Source: a virus. Taken from it: DNA of 59,026 bases. Location: IMG/VR virus record IMGVR_UViG_3300031027_000002; one strand, given 5' to 3'. This document shows positions 29,763 through 59,026 of the stretch, in pieces. The position numbers were made by a program, and so were the translations under genes. Under the pieces are notes generated by a model that was not told the DNA's origin, searched no databases, and saw nothing but the letters and a program-made list of their open reading frames with translations. Each line of letters begins with the position of its first letter. The first letter of the stretch is position 1.

Positions 29763-32669
29763 TCAGTCAAGTACGACCTCTCGGGTCGCCCATTCATCTA
29801 CCACTTCCTGCATCTTCTTCGTTAGTGGATATCTAGACTGCAGCCTGAGAGCGGTATTCTCGAAATCTCTCAGCGTCGTCCAGCCCATAGCGCAGGCGAA
29901 TACATTGTCGTCTTTTTGCCCTTCTTCATGTTCCATCCGGGTTTGCCCGCCATCCTTCTTCTTTCGCACGAACGTTCCGAGCTGGCGGATAACGATGGGG
30001 TCGTTCAGGATGTACCAGCCCGTGTTCACCGCATCGACGAACCTCTCCAGCAGAATCGACCGAGACCATGCCGTGGTGCGCCAGCCCTCCTTGCTCCCCT
30101 TGTTCGGGTCGATGTTCCCCTTCTGGTCGTAGAACTGCATGATGTGGTGGTACGTGAACCCCATGATCTTCAATTGGTGCTGGCACTCGTCCCCAGGCTT
30201 CCGTACCTGCTCGATCACGAACTTGGGGTCGTTGCCGCCATTCTCGTTCTGCCCGAACAGCACGGCCACGCAAGCGGCGATGCGCGCCATCTGCGGGGAG
30301 TTCACTTTGAGAGACGTGAAGGATGCTACCTGTACCGTCGGGGCTGTGGCGCCGCCGTCCCTGCACACGCTGAGCGCGGCGCGGTCCTCGTTTGGGGTGT
30401 TCAACCCATAGGCGGTATCAACCGAGATTGCGTACTGCACACCGGGTATCGGCGGCTCGTAGATCATCAGCTTGTCGAAGGTTGCGGCGTCGTCCGAGTC
30501 GTCAAACGACTTCATCGGAACCAGCGTCCACTCGTAGTGGTTGCCGTCGGGGGCGTCCCACTCCAGATTGATCCGCTGCTCGGTCCAGTCCACTTCCTCT
30601 TCGTTCGGGCGGTGAGGAGTGTTGTCGCTTCCGATGAGGATCGTCCTGCCGGTGATGGAGTAAGGCTTGTATCCGCGCTCGCGGCCGGCTGTGACCACTT
30701 CGATCGTGTCGCGCTCGAATACGGGGTCATGCTCGCTCTGGAAAGCGTCTTCGGGAGTCGGAGCGTACTGCGAAAGGAACTGGCTCTCCGAGTGAGAGGC
30801 TACGGCTTCCTTCCAAAGGCACTCCCAATACCACTGGAACACTCTGCCCATCTGCCAATGTTGGCCCAGCACGTCGCTGAGATAGGACGTCTGGCGGACG
30901 AATAGTTCGGCGCGGCGGCGCATGCGGCTCGTCGCTTCCGATGGGGCCCAGCCCTCAGGAACCGGGCGGGCGCGGAGCCAGTCCTTCGGAGGGTACAAAT
31001 CCTCAGCGCACGACGGCGGGATAAAGAATGGGGTGAAGCGTCCGCCTTTGTCTAGGTTCTCGGTGTAGTATTCCCATTTCTCCCGCTGCCACGTAGTCGC
31101 CATGCTGCCGGTGCCCTCAAGCACCATGAAGAGGCTGCGGGTGGCGTGGCACGCCGGGAAGAGGCCTTCTTCCAGCACGCGCTTGGGGTTGGCGTAGTCA
31201 CCGAGCTCGCTGATGTGAATGCAACTCGGGCTGTCACCCTGAGCGATACCGACTTCCTGATTACCCGACTGCACGGAGAGCTTGGAGCCGTTCGACCACC
31301 GCGGCTCTTTGGCTTTGATAATCGTCTTTGGCGGACCCAGCCAGAATGGAAGGCGCGTCCACGTCGTGTCGATCATCGCGGCCAGCTTGTCGGACTGCTG
31401 AGCCTGGACGGAAGCCATCACCGCGTAGGTGTTCGTGCGGAAGAGAATGCGGTGTAGGAAGAATTGAGCAACGGCAGTCGAGATTCCGACTTGCCGACAG
31501 TTGTGAGTCACGAATCCTTCGGCGATAAATGTTCCGGTGGATGTTTGAATATCCACCATGCGCTGCTCTGGCAGGAGTTCTATCTTGACCACTTTAGCCC
31601 ATCCCACACCACTGCGCTTACCCGGGAGAGACTTCCCCTCCCACCAGTTTTTCCCTATGAACCTACTTGGTCTTCCTCGTCCGAAGAGGCGGAACAACTC
31701 GTCCATGCGGGACAATCGCAACCTACCCACGGGCTGAGTTCCAAGAACCGAAGAGTCTTCTGGCGTTCTGATGTCTAGTTCTTCTCCAAAGTTATAATCG
31801 CGCTCCCTTAGGTATCTCCGAGCCCTGTTGAACGTTTCTCCAAGCCGTTGAGTTATACAGAAGTCAGCACCCTTGCGGGCCGAGTTGCAGCTTCCTTCTC
31901 CATCCGCCAAACCAGCAAACCATCCATCCTCGTGGGTCGGCTCCTCCCACGGTTTCGTTATCCATCGCACCCTATCGCCGATGCGGAAATCTTCTGCGTT
32001 TCTCCACTGCGTTGTTGTTCCACCACGGAGACATCCCAGCAAGGGATGCTCGGGTCCGCATACCACTTCACGGCCGTCATCCATCGTCAATCGAACTGCC
32101 TTCTCTCTCGTCTCCCACTTTTTCTCGACCGTACACGTCCGCATCTTGCGGTCGTTGCCTTTCCCTTTCGGTGCATACTCGTCTACCGCTACGAGTTGCT
32201 GGCCATCTTTCACGTCGTCCAGGGGAATCCATCTCAAGTCGGCTGTGAGAACTTTGGTCTTTGGGTCCATGCATTTCAGAACGAACAGTTGAATAGCTAT
32301 CTGCTTGTCGTCACATATCGCAAGGAAGTGGAGGAGAATCTTCTGCCCTAGCCGAAACTCAAACGGCAGGATTCGCTCTTCAGCGTTTCGGATCTTTGCA
32401 TAGCGGGTAATGAAATATTCTGCTGAGGCGAAACATAGGTACTGCTCGTTGTCGATCCACCGGCGAATAAACTTTACTTCGTTCTTCGATGGAACTTTTC
32501 CGTCCGCCCACCAGAACGACGCACCGGCCTTGTTGCGCCGCGCGTCCGTAATTGAGTCGATGTACTTGCAGAACTCCTCCGCCTCAACAGGCGTGTGAGG
32601 TTCAGGCATCCAGCCATTCTTTTGTGCAAAGGCTCTAAGTGTTCTCTCTGTGACGGCTTCCGAATACAT
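29763..32669 (-). CDS. terL: Terminase large subunit, interrupted by an in-frame intein
   Basis: Exteins join as LFVLK/CRQVGIST (P-loop, compare T4 gp17 SRQLGKT); Walker B-like SCIHISE; nuclease-like AISVDTAYG...NEDRAALSV. Confidence 0.85.
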   Translation of the reverse strand: MYSEAVTERTLRAFAQKNGWMPEPHTPVEAEEFCKYIDSITDARRNKAGASFWWADGKVPSKNEVKFIRRWIDNEQYLCFASAEYFITRYAKIRNAEERILPFEFRLGQKILLHFLAICDDKQIAIQLFVLKCMDPKTKVLTADLRWIPLDDVKDGQQLVAVDEYAPKGKGNDRKMRTCTVEKKWETREKAVRLTMDDGREVVCGPEHPLLGCLRGGTTTQWRNAEDFRIGDRVRWITKPWEEPTHEDGWFAGLADGEGSCNSARKGADFCITQRLGETFNRARRYLRERDYNFGEELDIRTPEDSSVLGTQPVGRLRLSRMDELFRLFGRGRPSRFIGKNWWEGKSLPGKRSGVGWAKVVKIELLPEQRMVDIQTSTGTFIAEGFVTHNCRQVGISTAVAQFFLHRILFRTNTYAVMASVQAQQSDKLAAMIDTTWTRLPFWLGPPKTIIKAKEPRWSNGSKLSVQSGNQEVGIAQGDSPSCIHISELGDYANPKRVLEEGLFPACHATRSLFMVLEGTGSMATTWQREKWEYYTENLDKGGRFTPFFIPPSCAEDLYPPKDWLRARPVPEGWAPSEATSRMRRRAELFVRQTSYLSDVLGQHWQMGRVFQWYWECLWKEAVASHSESQFLSQYAPTPEDAFQSEHDPVFERDTIEVVTAGRERGYKPYSITGRTILIGSDNTPHRPNEEEVDWTEQRINLEWDAPDGNHYEWTLVPMKSFDDSDDAATFDKLMIYEPPIPGVQYAISVDTAYGLNTPNEDRAALSVCRDGGATAPTVQVASFTSLKVNSPQMARIAACVAVLFGQNENGGNDPKFVIEQVRKPGDECQHQLKIMGFTYHHIMQFYDQKGNIDPNKGSKEGWRTTAWSRSILLERFVDAVNTGWYILNDPIVIRQLGTFVRKKKDGGQTRMEHEEGQKDDNVFACAMGWTTLRDFENTALRLQSRYPLTKKMQEVVDEWATREVVLD
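31500..32273 (-). mobile_element. Intein (258 aa) in the terL P-loop
   Basis: Starts CMDPKTKVLT, ends FVTHN followed by +1 Cys; block-B-like GPEHPLL; one LAGLIDADG-like motif FAGLADGEGS; visibly lower GC than the exteins. Confidence 0.8.
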
Positions 32670-36166: not shown

Positions 36167-36212
36167 GGACACAACAAAGCCGCCCGATGTGCTGGGCGGC
36201 TTTGTTGTGTCC
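36167..36212. terminator. Bidirectional intrinsic terminator between convergent operons
   Basis: Perfect 19-bp stem GGACACAACAAAGCCGCCC / GGGCGGCTTTGTTGTGTCC with an 8-nt loop. Confidence 0.8.
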
Positions 36213-36856: not shown

Positions 36857-37131
36857 TTTTTCACCTCGGGCTTTTCCGATGGCTTGGCGACGCACGCCGG
36901 ATCGCCCGCCGGACTCATCTGCAGAAAAAACTTCTCTCCGCATGCAGCCTGAAGCCTCGTCACGGCCGCCTGGAACTCGGTCTGCGCACCCTTGGCTTGT
37001 TCGCTGGCTGCCATGAGCTTGGATTGGGCCTTGAAGAACTCGGCGCGCTGGGCGTCGGTGATTTGTGGGATGGGTGCGCCCTGAGCGAAGGCTATGCTAG
37101 TCAGCAGCAGAATGGGCAGGTACTTCTTCAT
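36853..37131 (-). CDS. Small secreted protein (92 aa) with signal peptide
   Basis: MKKYLPILLLTSIAFA-QGAP; AAGAGG RBS. Confidence 0.6.
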   Translation of the reverse strand: MKKYLPILLLTSIAFAQGAPIPQITDAQRAEFFKAQSKLMAASEQAKGAQTEFQAAVTRLQAACGEKFFLQMSPAGDPACVAKPSEKPEVKK

Positions 37132-37522
37132 CGGAAACCTCTTTCGTGGTGGGTGGAATGAGAAGGGCAAACGCCGGCACTCCAAAGGCGTCCGCAAAAC
37201 GTTGTATGGAGGCCAGCGTAGGGGATATGCGCTGGTTCTCGAACTTGGAGATCCACGTCCGAGGAACGCTCATGCGCTTCGCGAGCTGGCGCTGAGACAG
37301 GTGGCTGTGGCGCCTCGCGGTTAGGACGTTCTGCTGGAACACGAGGCAGATGTCAACCGTAGGCTCCTCGTGGGGTCTAAAGACGCTGATAGGCAGGGTG
37401 GGCATGGCAGCAACAGGCGGAACGAACAAAGGCTTCTCGCACCTCCGGCAGTCTTTGGATTTGGTCATGTACTGGGTGAGATCACAGGACGGGCACTTGA
37501 CGACTTCGCGCTTATCGTTCAT
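37097..37522 (-). CDS. Zn-ribbon + XRE-family HTH regulator (repressor-like)
   Basis: CPSCDL...CRRCEK then LSQRQLAKRMSVPRTWISKFENQRISPTLASIQRFADAFGV. Confidence 0.75.
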   Translation of the reverse strand: MNDKREVVKCPSCDLTQYMTKSKDCRRCEKPLFVPPVAAMPTLPISVFRPHEEPTVDICLVFQQNVLTARRHSHLSQRQLAKRMSVPRTWISKFENQRISPTLASIQRFADAFGVPAFALLIPPTTKEVSDEEVPAHSAAD

Positions 37523-39463: not shown

Positions 39464-39498
39464 GTGATTATTATCATCCTACTCATCATCATTGTCAA
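39464..39498 (-). promoter_or_regulatory. Sigma70 consensus-like promoter TTGACA-17-GATAAT (leftward)
   Basis: Minus strand reads gaTTGACAatgatgatgagtaggatGATAATaatcacATG. Confidence 0.6.
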
Positions 39499-39807: not shown

Positions 39808-39835
39808 TTGACACGTCGCGCGACATGGCGATAAT
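39808..39835 (+). promoter_or_regulatory. Sigma70 consensus-like promoter TTGACA-16-GATAAT (rightward early) with GTCGCGCGAC palindrome in the spacer
   Basis: Read directly; followed by CACTCAGGAGGTG RBS and ATG 39865. Confidence 0.6.
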
Positions 39836-39864
39836 GTAGGGGAGTCACTCAGGAGGTGGCGAAC

Positions 39865-41190
39865 ATGGATACACCCTTAGAAGTGTTGCATAGGGTAGTA
39901 GGTCAAGCGATAGCAGATGGCGCGCCGGTATTTGAGAATCAGCCGGTTGAGGATGAGATCGAGGAAGATGAGCCCGAAGTGGATCTCTGTAGTGTGTGTG
40001 ATGAACCTCTAGACGATTGCACGTGTGCGGTTTGCTTAGGCCATCGTTACTTCAGTGGGTGCGAAGAGCGGTTTGATGGTTCGCCGTGCGAACGTTGCCA
40101 GAGGTGCCCGGATTGCTGCGAGTGCTATCACTGCGATGGGTGCGGTTCGCAGGTGGAGTATGTTTGTTCGAATTGCGAGCAATGTGAGGATCAATGCTGC
40201 AGTTGCTATTCCTGCGAAGCGTGCGGCGAACGTTCTCAGTCCGCGACGTGCGGCGGTTGCGATAGATGCAGCGATTGCTGCGAATGTGAGAGCAACTCCG
40301 AAGGTATGTATGAGGGGATGCTTCGCTTCCACTCTGCGCAGCGCAATCAATTCAAGATCAATCCGTCCAAGCGTTTTATCTCTCTTGAGATCGAAGTAGC
40401 GGACGGCGACGCGGAATCCATGCATACCGTTGCGGGGGATTGGGCGGATTCGATTGTCGAGGATGGTTCGCTTCCGTCCTCGGGGTGGGAGATGAACCTA
40501 AACCCATCGCAGGGTGATGTATTCATTGACCATACAAACGAGGTTGCCGATGCGCTCAAGCGTGCTGGCGCGTCTGTCAGTCGCGCGTGCGGGATGCATT
40601 GCCACGTAGACGCGCGTGACTTCCAATGGTTCGACCTATTCAAGCTCTGCAAACTGTACGCGAAGATCGAAGGTGGAATGTTCGCGCTGGTATCGCCGTC
40701 GCGTCAAGGCAATCGCTACTGTGAAGAATCCGCACGCTCTTACACTTTCTCAGACTTCCGTACCTTCAAGGCGGATCTTATTCGGTCACTGTACGGATGG
40801 ACGCCACAAAAGGGGAAAAGGGTGCATACCGGCATGACGGGCGCGTCCAAGCGTGCGCACAAATGCTCGCACGGCACGCGCCGGGAGTTTTCGCAGCGGA
40901 TGGACAAATACAATGGCGAGCGCTATCGCGCATTGAATCTCCACTCATTCTTCTATCGTGGAACAGTAGAGTTCCGCCACCATCACGGTACAGTCATAGC
41001 AGCGAAGATGCAGGGATGGGGAATGGTTTGCGCGTCCGTCCTAGATGCTGCGATGCGTATGAAAGTGTCGGATATCGAAGCATTGCCGATGGGTTGGGAT
41101 GGGTTGCTCGCCATCCTGTCAACAGACTTACAATCTTGGGCGATTACGCGTCGCTCTGAAATTCAAGACAAATGCAAAGGGGAAAACTAA
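39865..41190 (+). CDS. Cys-repeat domain fused to an Amidoligase_2 (PF12224-like) COOH-NH2 ligase
   Basis: 28 Cys in residues ~45-144 of the track ORF (39988..40287); then SLEIEV, EDGSL, GWEMNL, CGMHCHVD, RYRALNL, GTVEFRHHHGT; start moved from GTG 39856 to ATG 39865 (8 nt after AGGAGG). Confidence 0.8.
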   Translation: MDTPLEVLHRVVGQAIADGAPVFENQPVEDEIEEDEPEVDLCSVCDEPLDDCTCAVCLGHRYFSGCEERFDGSPCERCQRCPDCCECYHCDGCGSQVEYVCSNCEQCEDQCCSCYSCEACGERSQSATCGGCDRCSDCCECESNSEGMYEGMLRFHSAQRNQFKINPSKRFISLEIEVADGDAESMHTVAGDWADSIVEDGSLPSSGWEMNLNPSQGDVFIDHTNEVADALKRAGASVSRACGMHCHVDARDFQWFDLFKLCKLYAKIEGGMFALVSPSRQGNRYCEESARSYTFSDFRTFKADLIRSLYGWTPQKGKRVHTGMTGASKRAHKCSHGTRREFSQRMDKYNGERYRALNLHSFFYRGTVEFRHHHGTVIAAKMQGWGMVCASVLDAAMRMKVSDIEALPMGWDGLLAILSTDLQSWAITRRSEIQDKCKGEN

Positions 41191-41191
41191 T

Positions 41192-42163
41192 ATGTGCGGA
41201 ATCGCAGGGTATTTCAGTCAAGGCAACAAACCGTCTACGGCAACGGCCGTAGCTATCGCCATCCTCGCGCGCGAGATGGAGACGCGCGGAGATCATAGCT
41301 GGGGATGTACGGACGGGGAGATGGTCAATCGCAAGCTGGGGAAGATTAGCAAGGGGTTTGCCGTTCCGAAGCGTCTACCCTCTAACTTCACGCTACATAC
41401 GCGATTCGCCACAACGGGGAAGGTCAAAGAGTCCAACTCTCACCCATTCGTCGTCCAACGCGAGGGAAGGATGGTCGTAGGGATGCACAACGGCATCATC
41501 TCAAACCATTCCACGCTCAATCAGAAGTATGGGAGAACGTGCCGCGTTGACTCCCAGCATATCTTCGAAAACATCGCTTCGGGTTTCACGCTCAATGATC
41601 TTGAAGGATATGGAACCATCGTCTATCGAGATGCGGGAGAGTGGTATATCGGCACGTTCAACGGTGGCGAGATAGCCATTGCTCAAACATCCGCCGGGAT
41701 ATTCTTTGCTTCCACCTTCAAAGCCTTAGACGGCGCGTTGCTCGCGGCTGGGTTGGAACCATCGAAACGGGATCTACTCACGCAAGACGATACGATCTAC
41801 AAGCTAACCCCAGCGGGTTTGGTGGTGGCGTATACCGTCAACGTAAAAGACTCATTCGCGCGCTGGGATGATGACTGGAAGCTCAAAAGCAAGTCGTGGG
41901 GTACCACGTTCGGTCCTATGGTGGAAACGTGCGAAACGTGCGGAGATTACCTTCCGCCGGAAGCGACGGGTTCACTTTGCCGCCACTGCGCAGCGTTCCA
42001 GCTTGACTGGGATACACAGGTAGTCCCGGAAGACATGTTCGCCAAGTGTGAAGATTGCGGACTCAGGGTCGAAGCTGGCGAGGAAGTAGCAGTCTTAGGT
42101 GACACGTACCTGTGCATCGACTGCGCAACAAAGTACGACGACGCGGAGGTGAATGTCGCATGA
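41192..42163 (+). CDS. Class-II (Ntn) glutamine amidotransferase-like enzyme with two C-terminal zinc ribbons
   Basis: MCGIAGY N-terminus, MHNGIISN motif; C-terminal CETCG...CRHC and CEDCG...CIDC. Confidence 0.8.
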   Translation: MCGIAGYFSQGNKPSTATAVAIAILAREMETRGDHSWGCTDGEMVNRKLGKISKGFAVPKRLPSNFTLHTRFATTGKVKESNSHPFVVQREGRMVVGMHNGIISNHSTLNQKYGRTCRVDSQHIFENIASGFTLNDLEGYGTIVYRDAGEWYIGTFNGGEIAIAQTSAGIFFASTFKALDGALLAAGLEPSKRDLLTQDDTIYKLTPAGLVVAYTVNVKDSFARWDDDWKLKSKSWGTTFGPMVETCETCGDYLPPEATGSLCRHCAAFQLDWDTQVVPEDMFAKCEDCGLRVEAGEEVAVLGDTYLCIDCATKYDDAEVNVA

Positions 42164-42480
42164 GGCTATCAACGATTCAATCTCGCTGGGTTAGCGCGCT
42201 GCGCTCTGGCCTGTTCGCCCAAACCAAAGTCCTCTACCCGTACCTGAGAGAGGACGACGGGTTCACCGCGCTGGGAGTCTTATGCGAACTTGCAAGGATT
42301 GCTGGCGTGGTGGAAGGATTCAATCCCGCCCAGGATGTTCCGCCGAAGGTGACGGAGTGGGTGGGATTGAAATTCCCCTACGCGTCGTCGCTATCCCTCG
42401 CGGATAATAGCAAGACGTTCGCAGAGATGGCGTCCGCTATCATCTTGCACGCGGAAGAACTATTCGAGGTGACGCGATGA
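42160..42480 (+). CDS. Hypothetical protein (106 aa)
   Basis: ATGA coupling; W..ALRSG...LGVLCEL pattern common in phage proteins of unknown function. Confidence 0.6.
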   Translation: MRLSTIQSRWVSALRSGLFAQTKVLYPYLREDDGFTALGVLCELARIAGVVEGFNPAQDVPPKVTEWVGLKFPYASSLSLADNSKTFAEMASAIILHAEELFEVTR

Positions 42481-42617
42481 TCTACACCTTCCACGCCTAC
42501 AGCTTCCCATGCACCGTAATCGACCCCAAACCGCGTAGGGATGGATGGCTCTACATCCGCAATGACCAAACCGGGCGCCACTCGTGGGCTAACCCTCAGT
42601 ACCTCACCGCTGCATAA
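42477..42617 (+). CDS. Small hypothetical protein (46 aa)
   Basis: Not in track; ATGA coupling; MIYTFHAYSFPCTVIDPKPRRDGWLYIRNDQTGRHSWANPQYLTAA. Confidence 0.4.
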   Translation: MIYTFHAYSFPCTVIDPKPRRDGWLYIRNDQTGRHSWANPQYLTAA

Positions 42618-42633
42618 CCGAAAGGATCACGCC

Positions 42634-42777
42634 ATGTTCACTACCGAAGTAGGAAGCCGAACCAACCCTCTCCATGTCGTATCGCTCACCATTGCCGCTG
42701 TCTTTGTTGCCACCATAGCGGTCGCCCTGGCGCACAACTCGTTCCCGCACGCGTGGCTAGTCATAGGGAGGCTCTAA
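42634..42777 (+). CDS. Small single-TM protein (47 aa)
   Basis: AAAGGA RBS; hydrophobic LHVVSLTIAAVFVATIAVALA. Confidence 0.4.
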   Translation: MFTTEVGSRTNPLHVVSLTIAAVFVATIAVALAHNSFPHAWLVIGRL

Positions 42778-42929
42778 TGAGAGGCCTCTACGACCCCACC
42801 GGCTGCCGTCGCATGCAACGCCACAACCAAGAACGTCAAGACTTGTTCCGCGCCATCCGCAGCGGCATTATTTATACCGTCGCGATGCTCGCCATAGCCG
42901 CTTTCGTAGTTGCAATCTGGAGTCGATAA
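42777..42929 (+). CDS. Small single-TM protein (50 aa)
   Basis: TAATG coupling at both ends; IIYTVAMLAIAAFVVAIW. Confidence 0.4.
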   Translation: MRGLYDPTGCRRMQRHNQERQDLFRAIRSGIIYTVAMLAIAAFVVAIWSR

Positions 42930-43123
42930 TGCCGAAGCTTACCCGCACCGTAAACCCCGACTGGTTGACCAAACAACAGGCCGCCGACTTGCTCCAGGTC
43001 TCCGTGCGCACGATCAACCACTACATGACCACTGGAGTCATCGACGTAGCCAAGCACGTTCGCCGGCCTACCAGCCGCACCACGCGCATCGCAGCTGCAG
43101 CTATCGAGAAGATTTTGTCCTAA
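42929..43123 (+). CDS. Excisionase/MerR-like HTH DNA-binding protein (64 aa)
   Basis: WLTKQQAADLLQVSVRTINHYMTTGVI. Confidence 0.6.
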   Translation: MPKLTRTVNPDWLTKQQAADLLQVSVRTINHYMTTGVIDVAKHVRRPTSRTTRIAAAAIEKILS

Positions 43124-43128
43124 TATTG

Positions 43129-43157
43129 GCAAGCTATTTAGGTTTTAGCTTGCTTTT
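43129..43157 (+). terminator. Intrinsic terminator closing the amidoligase operon
   Basis: GCAAGCTA-9 nt-TAGCTTGC followed by TTTT. Confidence 0.6.
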
Positions 43158-43179: not shown

Positions 43180-43213
43180 CGCTCAAGAAAATCACTCAGG
43201 AGGTGATTGCATT

Positions 43214-43669: not shown

Positions 43670-43712
43670 ACCAGTCTCGAACCAGACCGAATCGCACTCA
43701 GGAGGTGCAACC

Positions 43713-46091: not shown

Positions 46092-47703
46092 CTATCAACT
46101 CGACTGCTTGAATCGGAGCAAGACGGCCTACGAGAGCGGGATCAACCGCCAGCTTGCCGTTCTCGCCACCGGCCTAGGAAAGACGGCCATCGCATCGTCT
46201 CTGCGTTCACACCACGGACTCAAGGGCAAGGTGATGATGCTAGTCCACATGGACCAACTCGCGAAGCAAGCCGCCCGAGCAATGGCTACGTGGAATCCTG
46301 GCGCATTTGTCGGAGTGGAGATGGCCGGCCAGTACGCGAGTCCGATGGACGACTTTGTAATCGCGTCCGTTCCGACGCTCGGCCGCAAGGGTTCTGACCG
46401 CATCAAGGGCATCGACCCATCCGAGTACTCCGCCATCATCCAAGATGAAGCGCACATTGGCATGGCCGACTCATTCAAGCGAGTGTACGACCATTTCGGC
46501 TTGATGCAGCCAAACCCGGAAGGACCTCTCTTCCTCGGGATCACAGCGACACCGAACCGCAACGACGGGCAGGGGCTGAAAGCCTTGTTCGACATGATCG
46601 TGTTCGACATGGGCATCCGTGACGGCATTGCCTCGGGCTTCCTCTGCGACATCCGCGCCATGCGGGTATCAGGCAAAGCAGACCTCGGCGGCGTCCACGT
46701 TCGCATGGGTGAGTTTGCGGAGAATGAGCTAGCTTCGGCAGTCAATACGCCAGAGCGCAACGCCATCATCGTCAAAGAGTGGTACAAGCACGCACGCACC
46801 CGCAGGACGATCTGCTTCACCGCAAACGTGCAGCACGCTCTTGACCTCGCGCAAGCGTTCGTAGTGCATGGCGTGGATGCGAAGGCAGTATGGGGAGACG
46901 ACCCACTCCGGCAGGAGAAGATCGACTACCACAAGACCGGCCAGTATCCCGTCATCTGCTGCGCTCAGTTGCTCGGCATCGGATATGACGACCCGCAGGT
47001 TTCGTGCATCGTCCTGGCTGCCCCGCGCAAGAGCTTCGTGCGGTACGCGCAGGAGGTTGGCCGCGGAACCCGCATTGCAGACGGCAAAGAAGACCTCCTC
47101 GTGATGGACATTTGCGACTCCAGCAGCAAGCACGACCTCTGCACTGTCTCCAGCCTGCTCGGGCTACCGAAAGACCTTGACCTCAAGGGAGAGAAGTTCT
47201 CGAAGGCTCGCGAGCAGCTTGAGCGCGTGGCGGCCGAGTTCCCCACGGCAAACATCCAAGACCTCCGCAACCTGTCCGAACTAGACTCCCTCGCGGAGAA
47301 GGTGGAACTGTTCAAGGTGGCGTATCCGCCCGAAGTCTCAAGGCTCACCGAACTGGCGTGGCGAAAGCAGGGCGAGGCGTACGCAATCAACGTGGAGCGG
47401 GAGCGGCTGGTCATCTCGGCTGATCTGCTAGGCGACTGGTGGGTGCGTGGCTCGGTGGCTGGGAAGCATGTAGAGATTCAGGCGCAGAACTTGGCGGGAG
47501 CGTTCAACATAGCTGACAAGACGGTTGCGGACTCTGGGGTGAATCGCTCTATCCTGCAACGCGAGGCCCGCTGGCGGGAGTCAGGGCCGAGCGACAAACA
47601 GATTGCGCTCTGCAAAAAAGTAGGACTCCCCATTCCCAATGGGGCTACCAGAGGTCAAGTAAGTTTTGCTTTAGACCAGCACTTCCAGAAGAGGCGCGCA
47701 TGA
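46078..47703 (+). CDS. SF2 DEAH-box helicase (ResIII/Helicase_C type)
   Basis: LRDYQ, ATGLGKT (Walker A), IIQDEAH (Walker B), TATPNR, later helicase C motifs. Confidence 0.85.
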   Translation: MLLRDYQLDCLNRSKTAYESGINRQLAVLATGLGKTAIASSLRSHHGLKGKVMMLVHMDQLAKQAARAMATWNPGAFVGVEMAGQYASPMDDFVIASVPTLGRKGSDRIKGIDPSEYSAIIQDEAHIGMADSFKRVYDHFGLMQPNPEGPLFLGITATPNRNDGQGLKALFDMIVFDMGIRDGIASGFLCDIRAMRVSGKADLGGVHVRMGEFAENELASAVNTPERNAIIVKEWYKHARTRRTICFTANVQHALDLAQAFVVHGVDAKAVWGDDPLRQEKIDYHKTGQYPVICCAQLLGIGYDDPQVSCIVLAAPRKSFVRYAQEVGRGTRIADGKEDLLVMDICDSSSKHDLCTVSSLLGLPKDLDLKGEKFSKAREQLERVAAEFPTANIQDLRNLSELDSLAEKVELFKVAYPPEVSRLTELAWRKQGEAYAINVERERLVISADLLGDWWVRGSVAGKHVEIQAQNLAGAFNIADKTVADSGVNRSILQREARWRESGPSDKQIALCKKVGLPIPNGATRGQVSFALDQHFQKRRA

Positions 47704-48230
47704 ACATATCTCCATTGTGTCCATGCGGTAAGACTGCCCTCTACCGAGTAGGTCATATTGGCTATTGCAAGCAGCACAGGGCGGACGCCATAGCGCAGAT
47801 CGAGAAGTTCGGAAACCCTCGCAACAAGACACTTAGGACGGCCCCCAAGGTAAAAGTTAGACACGTCGCCAAGGTTAGCTCCCAGCAGTTCAAGCTAGAC
47901 CGCCAGAAGGCCATGATCGCAGCTCCTACGCCATCCGAGGCTGCTCTGCGCATCATGTTGCGAGCGAACCCTATTACGAGAGGTAAGTGGAAGTTCCAAC
48001 CTATCCTTCACGGGTATATCCCGGACTTTCTGAACACCAAGGCTGGAGTAATTGTCGAATTAGATGGCGCTCCACACTTCACGGCAGAAGGAAAGCGCGC
48101 AGACGCTCGCCGCTCCCGTCACCTAATGCGTCATGGCTATCGCGTTATACGATTCTCCAACCACGAGGTGTTCACCAACCCCGACGGGGTGATGGCGTTC
48201 ATCATGGCCGCGCAGGACGGAACTCTGTGA
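47700..48230 (+). CDS. DUF559/Vsr-like PD-(D/E)XK endonuclease-domain protein
   Basis: YIPDFLNTKAGVIVELDGAPHF...GYRVIRFSNHEV. Confidence 0.7.
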   Translation: MNISPLCPCGKTALYRVGHIGYCKQHRADAIAQIEKFGNPRNKTLRTAPKVKVRHVAKVSSQQFKLDRQKAMIAAPTPSEAALRIMLRANPITRGKWKFQPILHGYIPDFLNTKAGVIVELDGAPHFTAEGKRADARRSRHLMRHGYRVIRFSNHEVFTNPDGVMAFIMAAQDGTL

Positions 48231-49771: not shown

Positions 49772-49833
49772 TGGGAGGGTCAGGTGTTGATCGCACCGGA
49801 CAAGCCCAGCCGCCCAAGGAGCGACCGTGACCC
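49767..49833 (+). promoter_or_regulatory. Homing-endonuclease 5' module, copy 2: TATAAT, 5' stem, AAGGAG RBS, GTG start
   Basis: Colinear with 15295..15361; GGGTCA / TGACCC complementarity conserved. Confidence 0.5.
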
Positions 49834-50351
49834 TTCCACTCTTCCCATCCTATCGTGAAATCTCTCTTACTAAAGGGCTCGTTGCCATCGTAGACCAATT
49901 CGACTTTGAACTTGTTTCAGTTCATCGTTGGTATGCGAAGTGGAGCGAGTGCACCCAATCCTTTTATGCCGCCACTAGCATTTCTGTTTCTGGAAAGTCT
50001 AAAACTTTGCGGATGCACCGGCTCATCTTGAGCATCTCAGATCCTCGTATTCTTTGCGATCACGCGAATCAGGACACGCTAGATAATCGACGCAGCAATC
50101 TTAGAGTCGCCACTTATCAAGAAAACAACCGAAATCATCGTCTCAGGAAAGACAATCGCTCTGGATTTACGGGCGTGTGCTGGTTTTCTCCCAAAGCTAA
50201 GTGGAGAGCCTACGTCTACTTAGATGGAAAGCAAAAACATCTTGGGTACTTTACCGATGTGGGGGAAGCCAGGAAAGCGCAAGTAGCTGCCGCCAAAGAG
50301 TTGTATGGGGAATTCAAGCCTAGCGACATGATCGTTACGGCGCTGGGATGA
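49827..50351 (+). CDS. HNH (HNH_3-type) + AP2-domain homing endonuclease
   Basis: HRLIL...CDHANQDTLDNRRSNLRVAT..EN and SGFTGVCW...KWRAYVYLDGKQKHLGYF. Confidence 0.85.
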   Translation: MTLPLFPSYREISLTKGLVAIVDQFDFELVSVHRWYAKWSECTQSFYAATSISVSGKSKTLRMHRLILSISDPRILCDHANQDTLDNRRSNLRVATYQENNRNHRLRKDNRSGFTGVCWFSPKAKWRAYVYLDGKQKHLGYFTDVGEARKAQVAAAKELYGEFKPSDMIVTALG

Positions 50352-50623
50352 TAACCGTGGGCAAGCTAGGCATCGTGCGATGCACTGGAGACGATCTCAC
50401 CAGCTTGCGCATTGAGTGCTTTGAGCGGGACGACTACCGCTGCGTGGACTGCGGGAGGACGGTGCGAGTGGACGCTCCTGAGTGGGCTGACAACCGCGCT
50501 CACATGGCCCACATCGAAGGCAGGGGTCGTGGCGGGTCTGACGTCATCACCAACGTCCACACCAAGTGCCGCCGGTGCCATAGCGACCTTGAGCACAATC
50601 CGAAGTCAGTGCCAAAGAAATAG
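50348..50623 (+). CDS. HNH endonuclease (91 aa)
   Basis: CVDCG...HMAHIEGRGRGGSDVITNVHTKCRRCHSDLEH. Confidence 0.8.
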   Translation: MITVGKLGIVRCTGDDLTSLRIECFERDDYRCVDCGRTVRVDAPEWADNRAHMAHIEGRGRGGSDVITNVHTKCRRCHSDLEHNPKSVPKK

Positions 50624-57195: not shown

Positions 57196-59001
57196 TTAGT
57201 GTACGGACGTGCCTGATGACAAGGCTACTCCAGATGAAAATTGAACTCCGAGAAAAGTTGGCGGCGCTATCCCCGGCTCTACAAATCCGATCGCCGGTGG
57301 GTTAGGACGTGTGACACCTACAAAGTCCAGCGTGGAGGCTTGAGACGCTGTACCAGCACCAATTGCAGGTGATCCACTCTGAAGTTTGTAATTCGTCCAC
57401 GGGCCGTTGGTTGCGCTTACGAATAGCGGATTGGTTGGCAGACTCAGCGACGTGAGGCTGGAGGCTGGTGTCGTCCCGCTGGGCGTCCCGCCGTAGAACA
57501 AAAGGTTGTTCGACCCTGTAAGGATCGCCTGCGGGGAGCCGCCGCCGAAAAGGATGTTGAAGGACGACGTGTTGGCGTACGCAGGCTGGTAGATGATGTT
57601 GTTCGTTAAGTGAACAGTGAACGGGGTCTGCGCTGTCTCGAAACCGTATGCGATCGCCGCAGCAAACGTGCTGCTGGATGAGTTTACGTAGACACTGCAA
57701 TCATAGAAAGTGTTGTTATAGACCTGTGCCGTTCCCGAGCCTACCGCGCTAGTTGCCTCGCCGGGGAATGAAAGGCAGGTGTGAACGCCGTCTGAGTCGC
57801 TGGCGGGTTGAATCCCGACGTGGTGGATGATGTTGCCGAAAATGTTTAGTGGTCCCTGCGCGCTATCCCACGTAGCGATGTTGATGCCCGCACCGTTCAC
57901 GTCGGTGATGTCGTTATAGGCGAACTCACCATTGCCAAAGCCGAGGGACGTATCTGTGAAGTAGTTCCACTGAATGCCGTTCCATGTGCAGTCGTCGATC
58001 TTGTTGTAGTCCGCGACCACCTGATTGCCCGTCAAATAGATCGAGTGGTACTGCTTGTTGGACACGCCCCCCGAATCGGAGCAACTGCTGTTGTGCAGGT
58101 AGTTGCCGAGGACAAATGTGCCGACATTGACTTGAGCTTCTTGACCGCCTGTAAGACAGGCTGAGGAGCCAGAGCCGGTCGGAGCGGTGAGTATATTGTT
58201 AACTGCCCGCATAAACGGCCCAGTGGGCGGCTCGGTGAACGAGAGGCAATTTCCTTGGCCCAATATTGTTAGCCCGGAGATTACCGTGCCCACGTCGCCA
58301 TAGTCGCGGATGCCCGTTGAGGCATTGACACCGTTGCCGATTGTTGCTGTAGCTCCGGGGCGCGCCATAAGGACGGTAGGAGTTGCTGAGGTCTGCGTAA
58401 ACCCCATATCCAATTGGAAGGCGGTGTAGAGGCTTCCCCCATCCGCGTAGGCAAAGTCGAACCCATTCAAGAACACAATAGTGTCCCCACCGTTGATGCA
58501 CTGGTAAAACTGAATCGGGATCAGACTATTGGCTGGCGGCGAAACATTGCTGCCTCCGCCGTTGATTTGCGTGCTGGGCGTGTTATTCGTCTTCCACGGA
58601 TTGCCGAACGATCCGTTACCGGCGTTGCCGTCCAGAGCGGTGCCGTTCTTTAGATTCGTGCAGTTCAGCGTAGTTCCGGTTGTGGCATTGTCGATGCCGG
58701 AGCCAATGTAGTAGATCGCACCCGAGCGCACAGTGAAGGTGAGGTTTGAGCACGAACCTCCCGGCGTGGTGATGACGATGTTACCGCTTCCCGTCGTGGC
58801 TGACGGAACCTGAAAGCCCAACTGTTGACGGTCTCCCGTCTTGTCCGCGCCGAGGTAAATCTTATTCGTAACTGCCGTGCCGTTCACCGTGATCGAGATA
58901 GTCGATAGCGACGAGCCGAAGTTAGCCCCGAACACGTCCACATAGATTCCGCCGCCGCCCTCGCCGCCTGTTGCAGGCCCTGAGAGGTTGTCCTGGTACA
59001 T
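57196..59001 (-). CDS. Tailspike/depolymerase-like protein: IPT/TIG-like N-domain + right-handed parallel beta-helix
   Basis: IYVDVFGANFGS...ITVNGTAV...IVITTPGGSCSNLTFTV, then repeated NxxxxN/G beta-helix rungs (NNILTAP, GNYLHNS, YNDITDVNGAGINI, GNIIHHVG); its first 34 codons lie in the terminal repeat. Confidence 0.8.
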   Translation of the reverse strand: MYQDNLSGPATGGEGGGGIYVDVFGANFGSSLSTISITVNGTAVTNKIYLGADKTGDRQQLGFQVPSATTGSGNIVITTPGGSCSNLTFTVRSGAIYYIGSGIDNATTGTTLNCTNLKNGTALDGNAGNGSFGNPWKTNNTPSTQINGGGSNVSPPANSLIPIQFYQCINGGDTIVFLNGFDFAYADGGSLYTAFQLDMGFTQTSATPTVLMARPGATATIGNGVNASTGIRDYGDVGTVISGLTILGQGNCLSFTEPPTGPFMRAVNNILTAPTGSGSSACLTGGQEAQVNVGTFVLGNYLHNSSCSDSGGVSNKQYHSIYLTGNQVVADYNKIDDCTWNGIQWNYFTDTSLGFGNGEFAYNDITDVNGAGINIATWDSAQGPLNIFGNIIHHVGIQPASDSDGVHTCLSFPGEATSAVGSGTAQVYNNTFYDCSVYVNSSSSTFAAAIAYGFETAQTPFTVHLTNNIIYQPAYANTSSFNILFGGGSPQAILTGSNNLLFYGGTPSGTTPASSLTSLSLPTNPLFVSATNGPWTNYKLQSGSPAIGAGTASQASTLDFVGVTRPNPPAIGFVEPGIAPPTFLGVQFSSGVALSSGTSVH

Positions 59002-59026
59002 GCAGACAGGGGCTTGCGCGAACGCC
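58900..59026. repeat. Terminal direct repeat identical to 1..127
   Basis: See the first feature. Confidence 0.95.

Follow-up and report, generated by a model that had tools for sequence, protein, structure and literature searches.

The locus analysed here raises the question of what reaction is carried out by two adjacent phage genes, the first encoding an amidoligase fused to a cysteine-repeat array and the second a stand-alone class-II amidohydrolase, and what the array contributes to it. The window, i.e. the whole stretch of 59,026 nucleotides that was analysed (IMG/VR record IMGVR_UViG_3300031027_000002), represents a complete genome of about 58.9 kb from a tailed phage that is novel and uncultured. 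The two genes open a cassette of seven same-strand genes, which is the first operon of the rightward arm of the genome, is closely followed by the ERF/YqaJ recombination genes, and adjoins recombination and replication genes. From first to last, the junctions between the seven genes are TAAtATG, ATGA, ATGA, a 16-nt gap, TAATG, and TAATG.

Ahead of the cassette lies a divergent pair of sigma-70-like promoters, one rightward (TTGACA-16-GATAAT, 39808..39835, + strand) and one leftward (TTGACA-17-GATAAT, 39470..39498, - strand), each with an 11/12 match. They are the sole promoter-like sites within 36-46 kb. With two matches observed and 4.3 expected from shuffles, their count was not above chance, and the sites are notable only for their quality and placement, not their number. 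The rightward 11/12 promoter is real, and the imperfect palindrome CACGTCGCGCGACATG inside its spacer (39812-39827) is a possible operator. An AGGAGG is located 8 nt ahead of the ATG of gene 1 (39865), and the extended Shine-Dalgarno leader TCACTCAGGAGGTG (39845..39858, + strand; three matches versus 0.01 expected) was seen again ahead of the next two gene starts, at 43192 and 43694. At the other end of the cassette, a weak hairpin followed by TTTT (43128..43157, + strand) was compared with the features of intrinsic (rho-independent) terminators, namely a GC-rich stem, a short loop, a run of at least five T, and a stability beyond that of shuffled sequence. The hairpin combines a stem of 9 bp and a loop of 9 nt with just four T; its fold of -14.3 kcal/mol (z = -1.7) was equalled by 17 of 200 shuffles, leaving it without statistical support as a terminator, and the terminator scan did not report it. 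Thus, of the "promoter-to-terminator cassette" proposed in an earlier, sequence-only reading, the promoter, the AGGAGG, and the seven coupled genes stand, whereas the terminator was rejected as no better than chance. The label "immediate-early" was not borne out either, since the relatives' loci gave no consistent promoter signal; early expression would follow from one consensus promoter.

Gene 1 (39865..41190, + strand) encodes 441 aa, a start on which the public gene calls agree, and was assigned using Pfam, PHROG, AlphaFold, and Foldseek. It matched Amidoligase_2 (PF12224) with E=1.9e-17 and 64.4 bits against a Pfam gathering cut-off of 22, as well as the PHROG amidoligase phrog_2443 at 3e-24, and all of the motifs previously quoted as the Amidoligase_2 signature were present. 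The catalytic domain (40360..41187, + strand), delimited by profile, structure model, and homologue alignment, has a pI of about 8.5. The best PDB matches of the AlphaFold model (mean pLDDT 82) in Foldseek were glutamine synthetase, plant Glu-Cys ligase, and YbdK, with probabilities of 0.99-1.0. Catalytic-type Glu, His, and Arg residues were invariant across 35 homologues, including R170, E175, E177, D200, E209, H245, H247, E269, R353, and R365. Gene 1 is consequently a predicted ATP-dependent carboxylate-amine ligase with the glutamine-synthetase / gamma-glutamylcysteine-ligase fold. In the literature searched, no substrate had been determined for any Amidoligase_2 member, in agreement with the earlier remark that the phage versions have no experimentally defined function.

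The poly-Cys repeat array, recognized by its Cys count and repeat pattern, spans residues 42-141 of gene 1 (39988..40287, + strand). There are 28 Cys within residues 40-150 versus 7 in the other 291 residues, and both this number and the three units C-x2-C-x2-C-x2/3-C-C-x-C reported earlier were confirmed. The full repeat comprises about 27 residues with eight Cys, C-x2-C-x5-9-C-x2-C-x2-C-x2-C-C-x-C, and the units follow one another head-to-tail in a strict 8-Cys register with fixed spacing and conserved aromatic and Gly positions. The Cys residues are invariant or nearly so among homologues, and the ligand positions contain no His. The array of gene 1 has a net charge of -18, while the array family has a mean net charge of -16, 24% Cys, and dense CxxC, CC, and CxC spacing. 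The array is presumed to be metal-binding, and its pLDDT of 70-89 within the full-length model suggests a defined fold; modelled alone, it gave an uninformative pLDDT of 54.

Searches with the array found no match in Pfam, in the literature, or in deposited phage genomes, and in the PDB only PHD-finger matches with E>=0.008 (best 0.0076-0.03), in which the bias was as large as the score. The annotated zinc-finger families therefore did not account for it. It was found in 147 protein clusters (50% identity), almost exclusively in uncultured phage sequence, and an amidoligase domain was present in 102 of the 136 new array clusters; most of the 85 gene 1 homologues carry it as well. Although the array is fused mostly to amidoligases, it occurs elsewhere on COOH-NH2_lig and RIIB-like domains, as expected of an adaptor, and it also exists as stand-alone small proteins. 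The array thus looks new, a very acidic, cysteine-packed repeat domain recurring in metagenomic phage proteins. The fusion had been called undescribed, which fits the lack of matches in these searches, but it is not peculiar to this phage and defines a metagenomic subfamily.

Gene 2 (41192..42163, + strand; 323 aa), which is translationally coupled to gene 1 with 1 nt between them, was assigned as a stand-alone class-II (Ntn) glutaminase-type amidohydrolase by Pfam, PHROG, and homologue alignment. It matched GATase_6 (E=2e-7, 31.5 versus a cut-off of 27) and GATase_4 (E=9.5e-7, 28.4 versus a cut-off of 23), and the PDB profile search returned GlmS (E=6.5e-14). Accordingly, the Pfam matches of both proteins were significant, and the class-II fold read from MCGIAGY and MHNGIISN was upheld together with the two CxxC...CxxC ribbons. 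The N-terminal MCGIAGY places the C2 nucleophile directly after the initiator Met. Of 33 homologues, at least 90% retain C2, and R71, N100, G101, and D120 are invariant throughout. C2, R71, N100, and G101 align with GlmS Cys1, Arg73, Asn98, and Gly99, and D120 was equated with D123 by motif alone. As judged from the alignment, the active-site residues are intact, and gene 2 keeps every residue that class-II amidotransferases use to hold glutamine or a gamma-glutamyl group. No fused synthase domain was found; beyond residue 240 there are just the two zinc ribbons, recognized by motif at residues 247-266 and 286-311 (41930..42124, + strand; CxxC at residues 247, 263, 286, and 308), the first of which is conserved in nearly all homologues.

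Neighbours were counted at 80 IMG/VR loci, a partner being defined as a gene-2-like GATase on the same strand within 1 kb. Such a partner accompanied 45 of 46 distinct Cys-rich amidoligases versus 5 of 42 Cys-poor ones (Fisher p about 3e-18, for loci that are related and not phylogenetically independent). At least 20 homologues of the two genes shared contigs, and their adjacency was also seen on contigs L087 and L166-L169, so the pair is strongly co-conserved in relatives. The C-terminal zinc ribbon was present in 29 of 35 GATases beside Cys-rich ligases versus none of three beside Cys-poor ones. Many relatives have two ligases and only one GATase. At the Cys-poor loci, the commonest neighbour was a GGACT/AIG2 gamma-glutamyl(amine) cyclotransferase (22 loci). 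This enzyme only cleaves gamma-glutamyl amides and cannot donate ammonia. Since it replaces the GATase beside Cys-poor ligases, the shared partner role points to cleavage of gamma-glutamyl bonds. The pair, which gene 3 joins in close relatives, is a mobile module found almost exclusively in uncultured phage sequence.

The remaining genes of the cassette are small. Gene 3 (42160..42480, + strand; 106 aa) belongs to DUF8296 / phrog_18067 by profile match and, as the relatives' loci indicated, follows the pair only in the closest clade. Gene 4 (42477..42617, + strand; 46 aa) had no homologue in the Pfam and PHROG scans or among relatives. Genes 5 (42634..42777, + strand; 47 aa) and 6 (42777..42929, + strand; 50 aa) contain the hydrophobic stretches VVSLTIAAVFVATIAVALA and IIYTVAMLAIAAFVVAIW, respectively, each read from the sequence as a likely membrane helix; a weak T2SSF match of gene 6 reflects the helix only. 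Gene 7 (42929..43123, + strand; 64 aa) is an HTH_17 / excisionase-type DNA-binding protein according to Pfam and PHROG. No target candidate was conserved across the family.

We tentatively favor a gamma-glutamyl-type "write and cleave" amide pair directed by a metal-binding adaptor array, to which we give somewhat less than an even chance. On a target bearing an amine, the ligase would create an amide or isopeptide bond of the gamma-glutamyl type. The Ntn enzyme would then cleave or process this bond, so that one enzyme would write or add what the other erases or trims. The 28 Cys of the array would suffice for seven Cys4 metal sites. The array is probably a zinc-stabilised, strongly anionic adaptor that may bring the ligase to its target, for which a protein or polycation would be plausible, and/or dock the zinc-ribbon tail of the gene 2 hydrolase. 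The chemistry, metal binding, target, and expression timing of the pair are what we infer here, as is the role in take-over or counter-defence suggested earlier. A wider proposal, which we regard as unlikely, sees the 8-Cys array as a new mobile domain that binds metal and directs amide-bond enzymes to a single class of targets in the host, and the pair as a phage system, not recognised before, by which host proteins or polycations are covalently and reversibly modified in the service of take-over or counter-defence. In that case, the array would deliver both the gamma-glutamyl ligase/hydrolase pair and a second ligase family, and perhaps E2-like and other effectors as well.

The retained gene 2 residues are equally compatible with free glutamine, so that cleavage and ammonia donation cannot be told apart by sequence. 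Gene 2 might therefore pass ammonia from glutamine to gene 1, which would convert an ATP-activated carboxylate on a protein, cell-wall precursor, nucleotide, or metabolite into a carboxamide, functionally like MurT/GatD or asparagine synthetase. Such glutamine-dependent amidation would suit the full glutamine-binding and catalytic set of the homologues, the nearly constant adjacency with a 1-nt gap, typical of two-subunit amidotransferases, and the fold that gene 1 shares with glutamine synthetase, which itself takes ammonia. It is nevertheless improbable, because sister amidoligases pair with a cyclotransferase unable to supply ammonia, many relatives have two ligases per single GATase, and we know of no GATase subunit that feeds an enzyme with the GS fold.

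We likewise doubt that the pair is an auxiliary metabolic module lacking a macromolecular target, in which a free gamma-glutamyl compound (for example a gamma-glutamyl-polyamine, a glutathione-like peptide, or a nitrogen-shuttling metabolite) would be synthesised or recycled and the array would be regulatory or structural. The closest solved folds are indeed those of the metabolic enzymes GS, Glu-Cys ligase, and YbdK, and the two-ligase loci suggest stepwise peptide synthesis. Phage sets of amidoligase, GATase, ATP-grasp/glutathione-synthase, and cyclotransferase genes have been interpreted as metabolic (PMC10945688; PMC3890496), but that claim is not biochemical, and targeting fits better with an array that is large, conserved, mobile, and present both on non-metabolic proteins, such as one with an RIIB-like domain, and as stand-alone small proteins.

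For the array itself, an Fe-S cluster site or metal store is possible. That it is no adaptor at all, but a redox/Fe-S module or metallothionein-like store regulating the ligase or sequestering metal, appears quite unlikely: its high Cys content with dense CxxC, CC, and CxC, its C-x2-C-x2-C runs resembling cluster-binding motifs, and its lack of a match to any structural zinc-finger family are offset by the strict register with conserved aromatic/Gly positions, the model confidence suggesting a defined fold, and the fusion to many unrelated domains, which fits a binding module. Addition or trimming of an amino-acid-derived group on a modified base is highly improbable, because although amidoligase and GATase genes co-occur with thymidine-hypermodification clusters (PMC8989533), the cassette lies beside recombination and replication genes, and both proteins carry zinc-type modules, the charge of the array is ill suited to DNA binding, and no dUMP hydroxymethylase, 5-HMUDK, aGPT-Pplase, TET/JBP, or deazaguanine genes were found by Pfam or PHROGs among the window ORFs scanned, about 48 in number and including part of the small ones.

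Compared with known systems, the array resembles the eight-ligand, two-zinc LIM/PHD/RING fingers in having eight Cys per ~27-residue unit with CxxC pairs; its weak best PDB matches were tandem PHD fingers, and one BFVD amidoligase is auto-named "LIM domain containing". Its units differ in having no His ligands, much shorter inter-ligand loops, an extremely acidic composition, and a head-to-tail arrangement, and with the Pfam and PDB results given above it was rejected as a finger of this kind. MurT/GatD and other two-subunit glutamine amidotransferases likewise consist of an adjacent, coupled glutaminase and an ATP-dependent carboxylate-activating enzyme, but GatD is a class-I (triad) GATase and MurT has a Mur-ligase fold, neither being homologous to genes 1 and 2. 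Pupylation is alike in its GS-like ligase PafA, its gamma-glutamyl-lysine isopeptide on proteins, and its amidase partner, the deamidase-depupylase Dop; however, Dop does not belong to the Ntn enzymes but is a PafA paralogue, the window yielded no Pup-like tag with GGQ/E at its C-terminus, and Pup ligase gave no Pfam match.

The write-and-cleave logic favored here is that of PuuA/PuuD (putrescine), EgtA/EgtC (ergothioneine), and GmaS/MgsA, in which a GS/GCL-fold ligase makes a gamma-glutamyl amide and a GATase-fold hydrolase then cleaves it, EgtC being a stand-alone class-II domain. These distant homologues lack a Cys array and act in metabolic pathways that are encoded on chromosomes and whose small substrates are known. 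The pairing of amidoligase and GATase is itself already known from comparative genomics, which described Amidoligase_2 genes beside either a GAT-like thiol peptidase or an Aig2 cyclotransferase (Iyer, Abhiman, Burroughs & Aravind 2009; Pfam text), and from LUZ24-like Pseudomonas phages (PMC3890496). Relative to these, gene 1 adds the roughly 100-residue poly-Cys array, gene 2 has zinc ribbons and no synthase-type extension, and the window is without ATP-grasp or COOH-NH2_lig companions. Both they and the present cassette lie in an early or replication arm, with predicted functions, and combine the same ligase family with a class-II GATase partner; the alternative of GATase or cyclotransferase was reproduced in the IMG/VR loci.

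Gene 1 (39865-41190) starts with an ATG 8 nt past AGGAGG, and public gene calls agree on its 441-aa product, which contains all six of the motifs quoted in the sequence-only reading. Its Cys residues number 28 within residues 40-150 versus 7 in the remaining 291, and they include three C-x2-C-x2-C-x2/3-C-C-x-C units. Gene 2 (41192-42163) starts with MCGIAGY, carries MHNGIISN, and has four CxxC motifs at residues 247, 263, 286, and 308, and the protein-level claims of that reading were all correct. The predicted family assignments were recovered with Pfam, where gene 1 reached 64 bits for Amidoligase_2 (cut-off 22) and gene 2 exceeded the cut-offs of both GATase_6 and GATase_4, as a class-II glutaminase-type enzyme (GATase). 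The seven genes are tightly coupled by 1-nt gaps or ATGA/TAATG overlaps, with the exception of one 16-nt gap.

The structural model of gene 1 had a mean pLDDT of 82, with most of the catalytic domain above 90. Its best PDB matches in a structure search were glutamine synthetase, plant glutamate-cysteine ligase, and YbdK, while dozens of phage "amidoligases" were matched in a viral structure library. Across 35 homologues, the characteristic Glu, His, and Arg residues of the fold were invariant. A profile built from 33 gene-2 homologues matched the GlmS glutaminase domain (6.5e-14), and in the profile alignment Cys1, Arg73, Asn98, and Gly99 of GlmS corresponded to C2, R71, N100, and G101 of gene 2. 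Among the 33 homologues, R71, N100, G101, and D120 were invariant and C2 was present in at least 90%. No synthase domain was found in gene 2, and past residue 240 the family has only zinc ribbons, two in the nearest relatives and one in the remoter ones.

The N-terminal Cys array of gene 1 (residues 42-141; 39988-40287) is not peculiar to this phage, as the majority of 85 gene-1 homologues span 82-92% of the query and have 20-45 N-terminal Cys in one to five strict units. Each unit comprises about 27 residues with eight Cys in the pattern C-x2-C-x5-9-C-x2-C-x2-C-x2-C-C-x-C, in which the CxxC is usually preceded by an aromatic residue, and 22 Cys columns were invariant in an alignment of 13 sequences. 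The array consists of 24% Cys and 20% Asp plus Glu, with net charge averaging -16 (-18 in the window phage), unlike the catalytic domain, which is basic (pI ~8.5). Seven Cys4 sites could be filled by the 28 Cys. The array reached a pLDDT of 70-89 in the full-length model, with only short beta-bridges, as might be expected of metal knuckles, while AlphaFold gave no reliable model of the array alone (pLDDT 54). The coding region of the array shows no tandem repeat at the DNA level, so its units are old. The suspicion that the Cys-repeat fusion was undescribed agreed with the searches: the array matched no Pfam family, and no paper connecting amidoligases with a Cys-rich domain was found in the literature searched. 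The PDB profile matches were to tandem PHD fingers only (E = 0.008-0.03), with a bias as large as the score, and this identity was rejected as compositional.

A homologue search with the array profile returned only three matches because it relies on a word index. An exhaustive profile search (1.84 billion representative proteins; E ≤ 1e-3) yielded 147 array clusters. The amidoligase domain was present in 102 of the 136 new clusters, and the others were fragments, stand-alone proteins of 86-170 aa, or other fusions. In the metagenomic proteins, the array is fused to the COOH-NH2_lig domain (PF14395) of a phiEco32-type COOH-NH2 ligase (P0204), an RIIB-like domain (P0285), phrog_4301 (P0185), an unassigned domain with the motifs AVGGE.RHHR and FVDRVFT.QHN (phrog_20946; P0156, P0231, P0235, and P0277), and a large C-terminal domain without a match (P0224 and P0237), for which a PEP-utiliser-like reading of P0224 found no support. 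Three further proteins with a C-terminal array (P0157, P0208, and P0219) have the invariant motif HPH-x7-C-x-G-[ND]-[LI]-S in common. E2 ubiquitin-conjugating enzymes have an HPN...C active site with identical His-Pro-to-Cys spacing; the E2/UBC-like reading draws on this spacing, Pfam, PHROG, and PDB sequence searches gave it no backing, and it is retained as no more than a lead. In two gene-1 homologues (P0030 and P0038), a long pentapeptide-repeat domain lies N-terminal to the array. Pentapeptide repeats are often DNA mimics, and by analogy the acidic array might itself be one.

Across 185,579 species genomes, the array aligned at two loci only, both in metagenome bins, while the amidoligase catalytic domain without the array was common in Firmicutes. 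A tblastn search of deposited phage genomes with gene 1 gave five records covering the catalytic domain only, and none aligned with the array alone, to which the low-complexity filter possibly contributed. In view of this cluster spread, the varied fusions, the two species-genome loci, and the lack of a deposited phage over the array, the array is a mobile module observed almost exclusively in uncultured phage sequence.

The proposed co-conservation of genes 1 and 2 held in a neighbourhood census of 80 IMG/VR loci, where 45 of 46 distinct Cys-rich ligases had a gene-2-like GATase no more than 1 kb away in the same orientation, versus 5 of 42 Cys-poor ligases (p ~3e-18, inflated in significance since the loci are not independent). 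At least 20 gene-1 and gene-2 homologues lie on contigs of identical length, and in the five fully read contigs with both, the ligase is followed by the adjacent GATase on one strand. A C-terminal zinc ribbon was present in 29 of the 35 GATases of Cys-rich loci. The GATase is mostly absent from Cys-poor loci, whose commonest neighbour is a GGACT/AIG2 gamma-glutamyl(amine) cyclotransferase (22 loci). In four loci (L049-L051 region, e.g., L051 9447-10343), an ADP-ribosylglycohydrolase gene, which is another modification-reversing enzyme, lies within 3 kb of a Cys-poor amidoligase.

Many loci have a second layout, with a long ligase first, then the GATase, and last a Cys-rich ligase. Between the latter two sits a conserved protein of ~105 aa (L011-L070, e.g., L014 7480-7780 and L027 5423-5740), which ends in a short conserved tail (...ITANYAIA, ...NTGG, ...NIGV) and is a candidate tag or substrate; it is absent from the window. 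Conservation of gene 3 (DUF8296) behind the pair is limited to the three closest relatives (35-47% identity), and genes 4-7 had no homologues in related loci. The pair often adjoins a recombination module, which is ERF/YqaJ in the window phage and elsewhere Sak with a 294-aa protein that is conserved, lacks annotation, and by eye resembles Cas4.

The window (57.6% GC) is a circularly assembled complete phage genome of ~58.9 kb, because nt 1-127 are identical to nt 58900-59026 and the gene 2 protein recurs unchanged on a public 59,028-nt contig. It encodes terminase large subunit and tail-fibre PHROG matches, phage lysozyme, ERF and YqaJ recombination proteins, a helicase, and HNH endonucleases; the phage is tailed and has few known relatives, and a blastn search with the cassette matched nothing among GenBank phages. 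The terminase large subunit candidate (29766-32669, minus strand, 968 aa) has a weak Intein_splicing match at residues 176-390, below the Pfam cut-off, and its gene may be interrupted by an intein. Interspersed in the plus-strand replication arm are a DUF559/Vsr-like endonuclease and two HNH endonucleases (47700-48227, 49827-50348, and 50348-50620), which may be homing elements.

Minus-strand genes fill 168-39463 and are followed by a 400-bp gap, after which the plus-strand genes start at 39865. The promoter scan of 36-46 kb found only two strong sigma-70-like sites, both inside this gap, at 39808-39835 (plus) and 39498-39470 (minus); they are divergent, with identical hexamers and an 11/12 match each. 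The plus-promoter spacer contains the 16-bp imperfect palindrome CACGTCGCGCGACATG (39812-39827), which has no second copy in the genome and is a possible operator, with the HTH_3 protein at 37097-37519 (minus strand) or gene 7 as candidate binders. The 14-nt leader TCACTCAGGAGGTG occurs at 39845-39858 ahead of gene 1, at 43192-43205 ahead of the next gene (43214), and with one mismatch at 43694-43707 ahead of the ERF gene (chance expectation, 0.01 matches). The copies resemble an extended ribosome-binding site, or a regulatory site, common to the three genes, and they mark three strongly translated starts, not a closed-off cassette. The claimed hairpin and TTTT terminator fared poorly: its 9-bp stem is modest in GC, its loop spans 9 nt, and just four T follow; the terminator scan did not report it, and 17 of 200 shuffles matched it in stability. 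By far the strongest terminator-like element of the region is a perfect hairpin at 36167-36212 (20-bp stem, 12 GC pairs), which separates the leftward block of small genes from the structural genes. No Rfam match was found in 36-44 kb, and no site lay consistently upstream of the ligase in promoter scans of three relatives (L167-L169). Early expression fits the first-gene position and the near-consensus, possibly operator-controlled promoter; "immediate-early" timing is an inference.

The switch of partner enzyme is the central result. The common ground of the cyclotransferase and the Ntn "glutaminase" is cleavage of gamma-glutamyl amide bonds. Because of this partner switch and the precedents among enzyme pairs of the same folds, we tentatively favour a reading in which the gene 1 ligase would form a gamma-glutamyl-type amide on an amine and the gene 2 Ntn enzyme would remove or trim it. 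In gene 2, the Arg and Asp that are kept suit a gamma-glutamyl group whose alpha-amino and alpha-carboxyl groups are free. Free glutamine would suit them equally well, so glutamine-dependent amidation is the main rival, at a rather low probability; a cyclotransferase is unable to donate ammonia. A purely metabolic role has a similarly low probability, and would reduce the pair to ordinary auxiliary genes, one of them with an unusual domain. DNA hypermodification is unlikely, as the array is far too acidic for DNA binding, and membership in such a cluster was rejected, its defining genes being absent among the window ORFs scanned. Since the array is mobile across unrelated catalytic domains, fixed in register, and highly charged, we suggest that it acts as an adaptor, with a protein or polycation as target, or that the zinc ribbon of the hydrolase docks on it; it may alternatively serve in metal storage or redox.

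The amidoligase and GATase pair is an already known, predicted phage module, annotated in many phages, including LUZ24-like and crAss-like ones, and ranks among the most widespread functionally unassigned phage enzyme pairs. Such pairs have reportedly been predicted since 2009, in work by Iyer and co-workers. The array, its tight link to the GATase, and its occurrence on further phage proteins seem to have gone undescribed, as far as the searched libraries and literature show. This conserved acidic, Cys-packed putative adaptor co-varies with the partner enzyme, is reused on other phage effectors, and could provide a bait for the target. The switch between GATase and cyclotransferase would narrow the chemistry to gamma-glutamyl amide bonds, with predicted mass shifts of +129 Da for gamma-glutamyl addition versus -0.98 Da for amidation. 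Should a host protein prove to be the target, the pair would represent a new type of phage-imposed post-translational modification.

The Pfam text for Amidoligase_2 reportedly gives a GATase-like or a cyclotransferase partner as alternatives, and the switch in the IMG/VR loci reproduces them. Pairs of a GS-fold ligase and a GATase-fold hydrolase act on gamma-glutamyl amides in PuuA/PuuD, EgtA/EgtC, and GmaS/MgsA, and PafA/Dop is the protein-tagging analogue of such a ligase and hydrolase pair.
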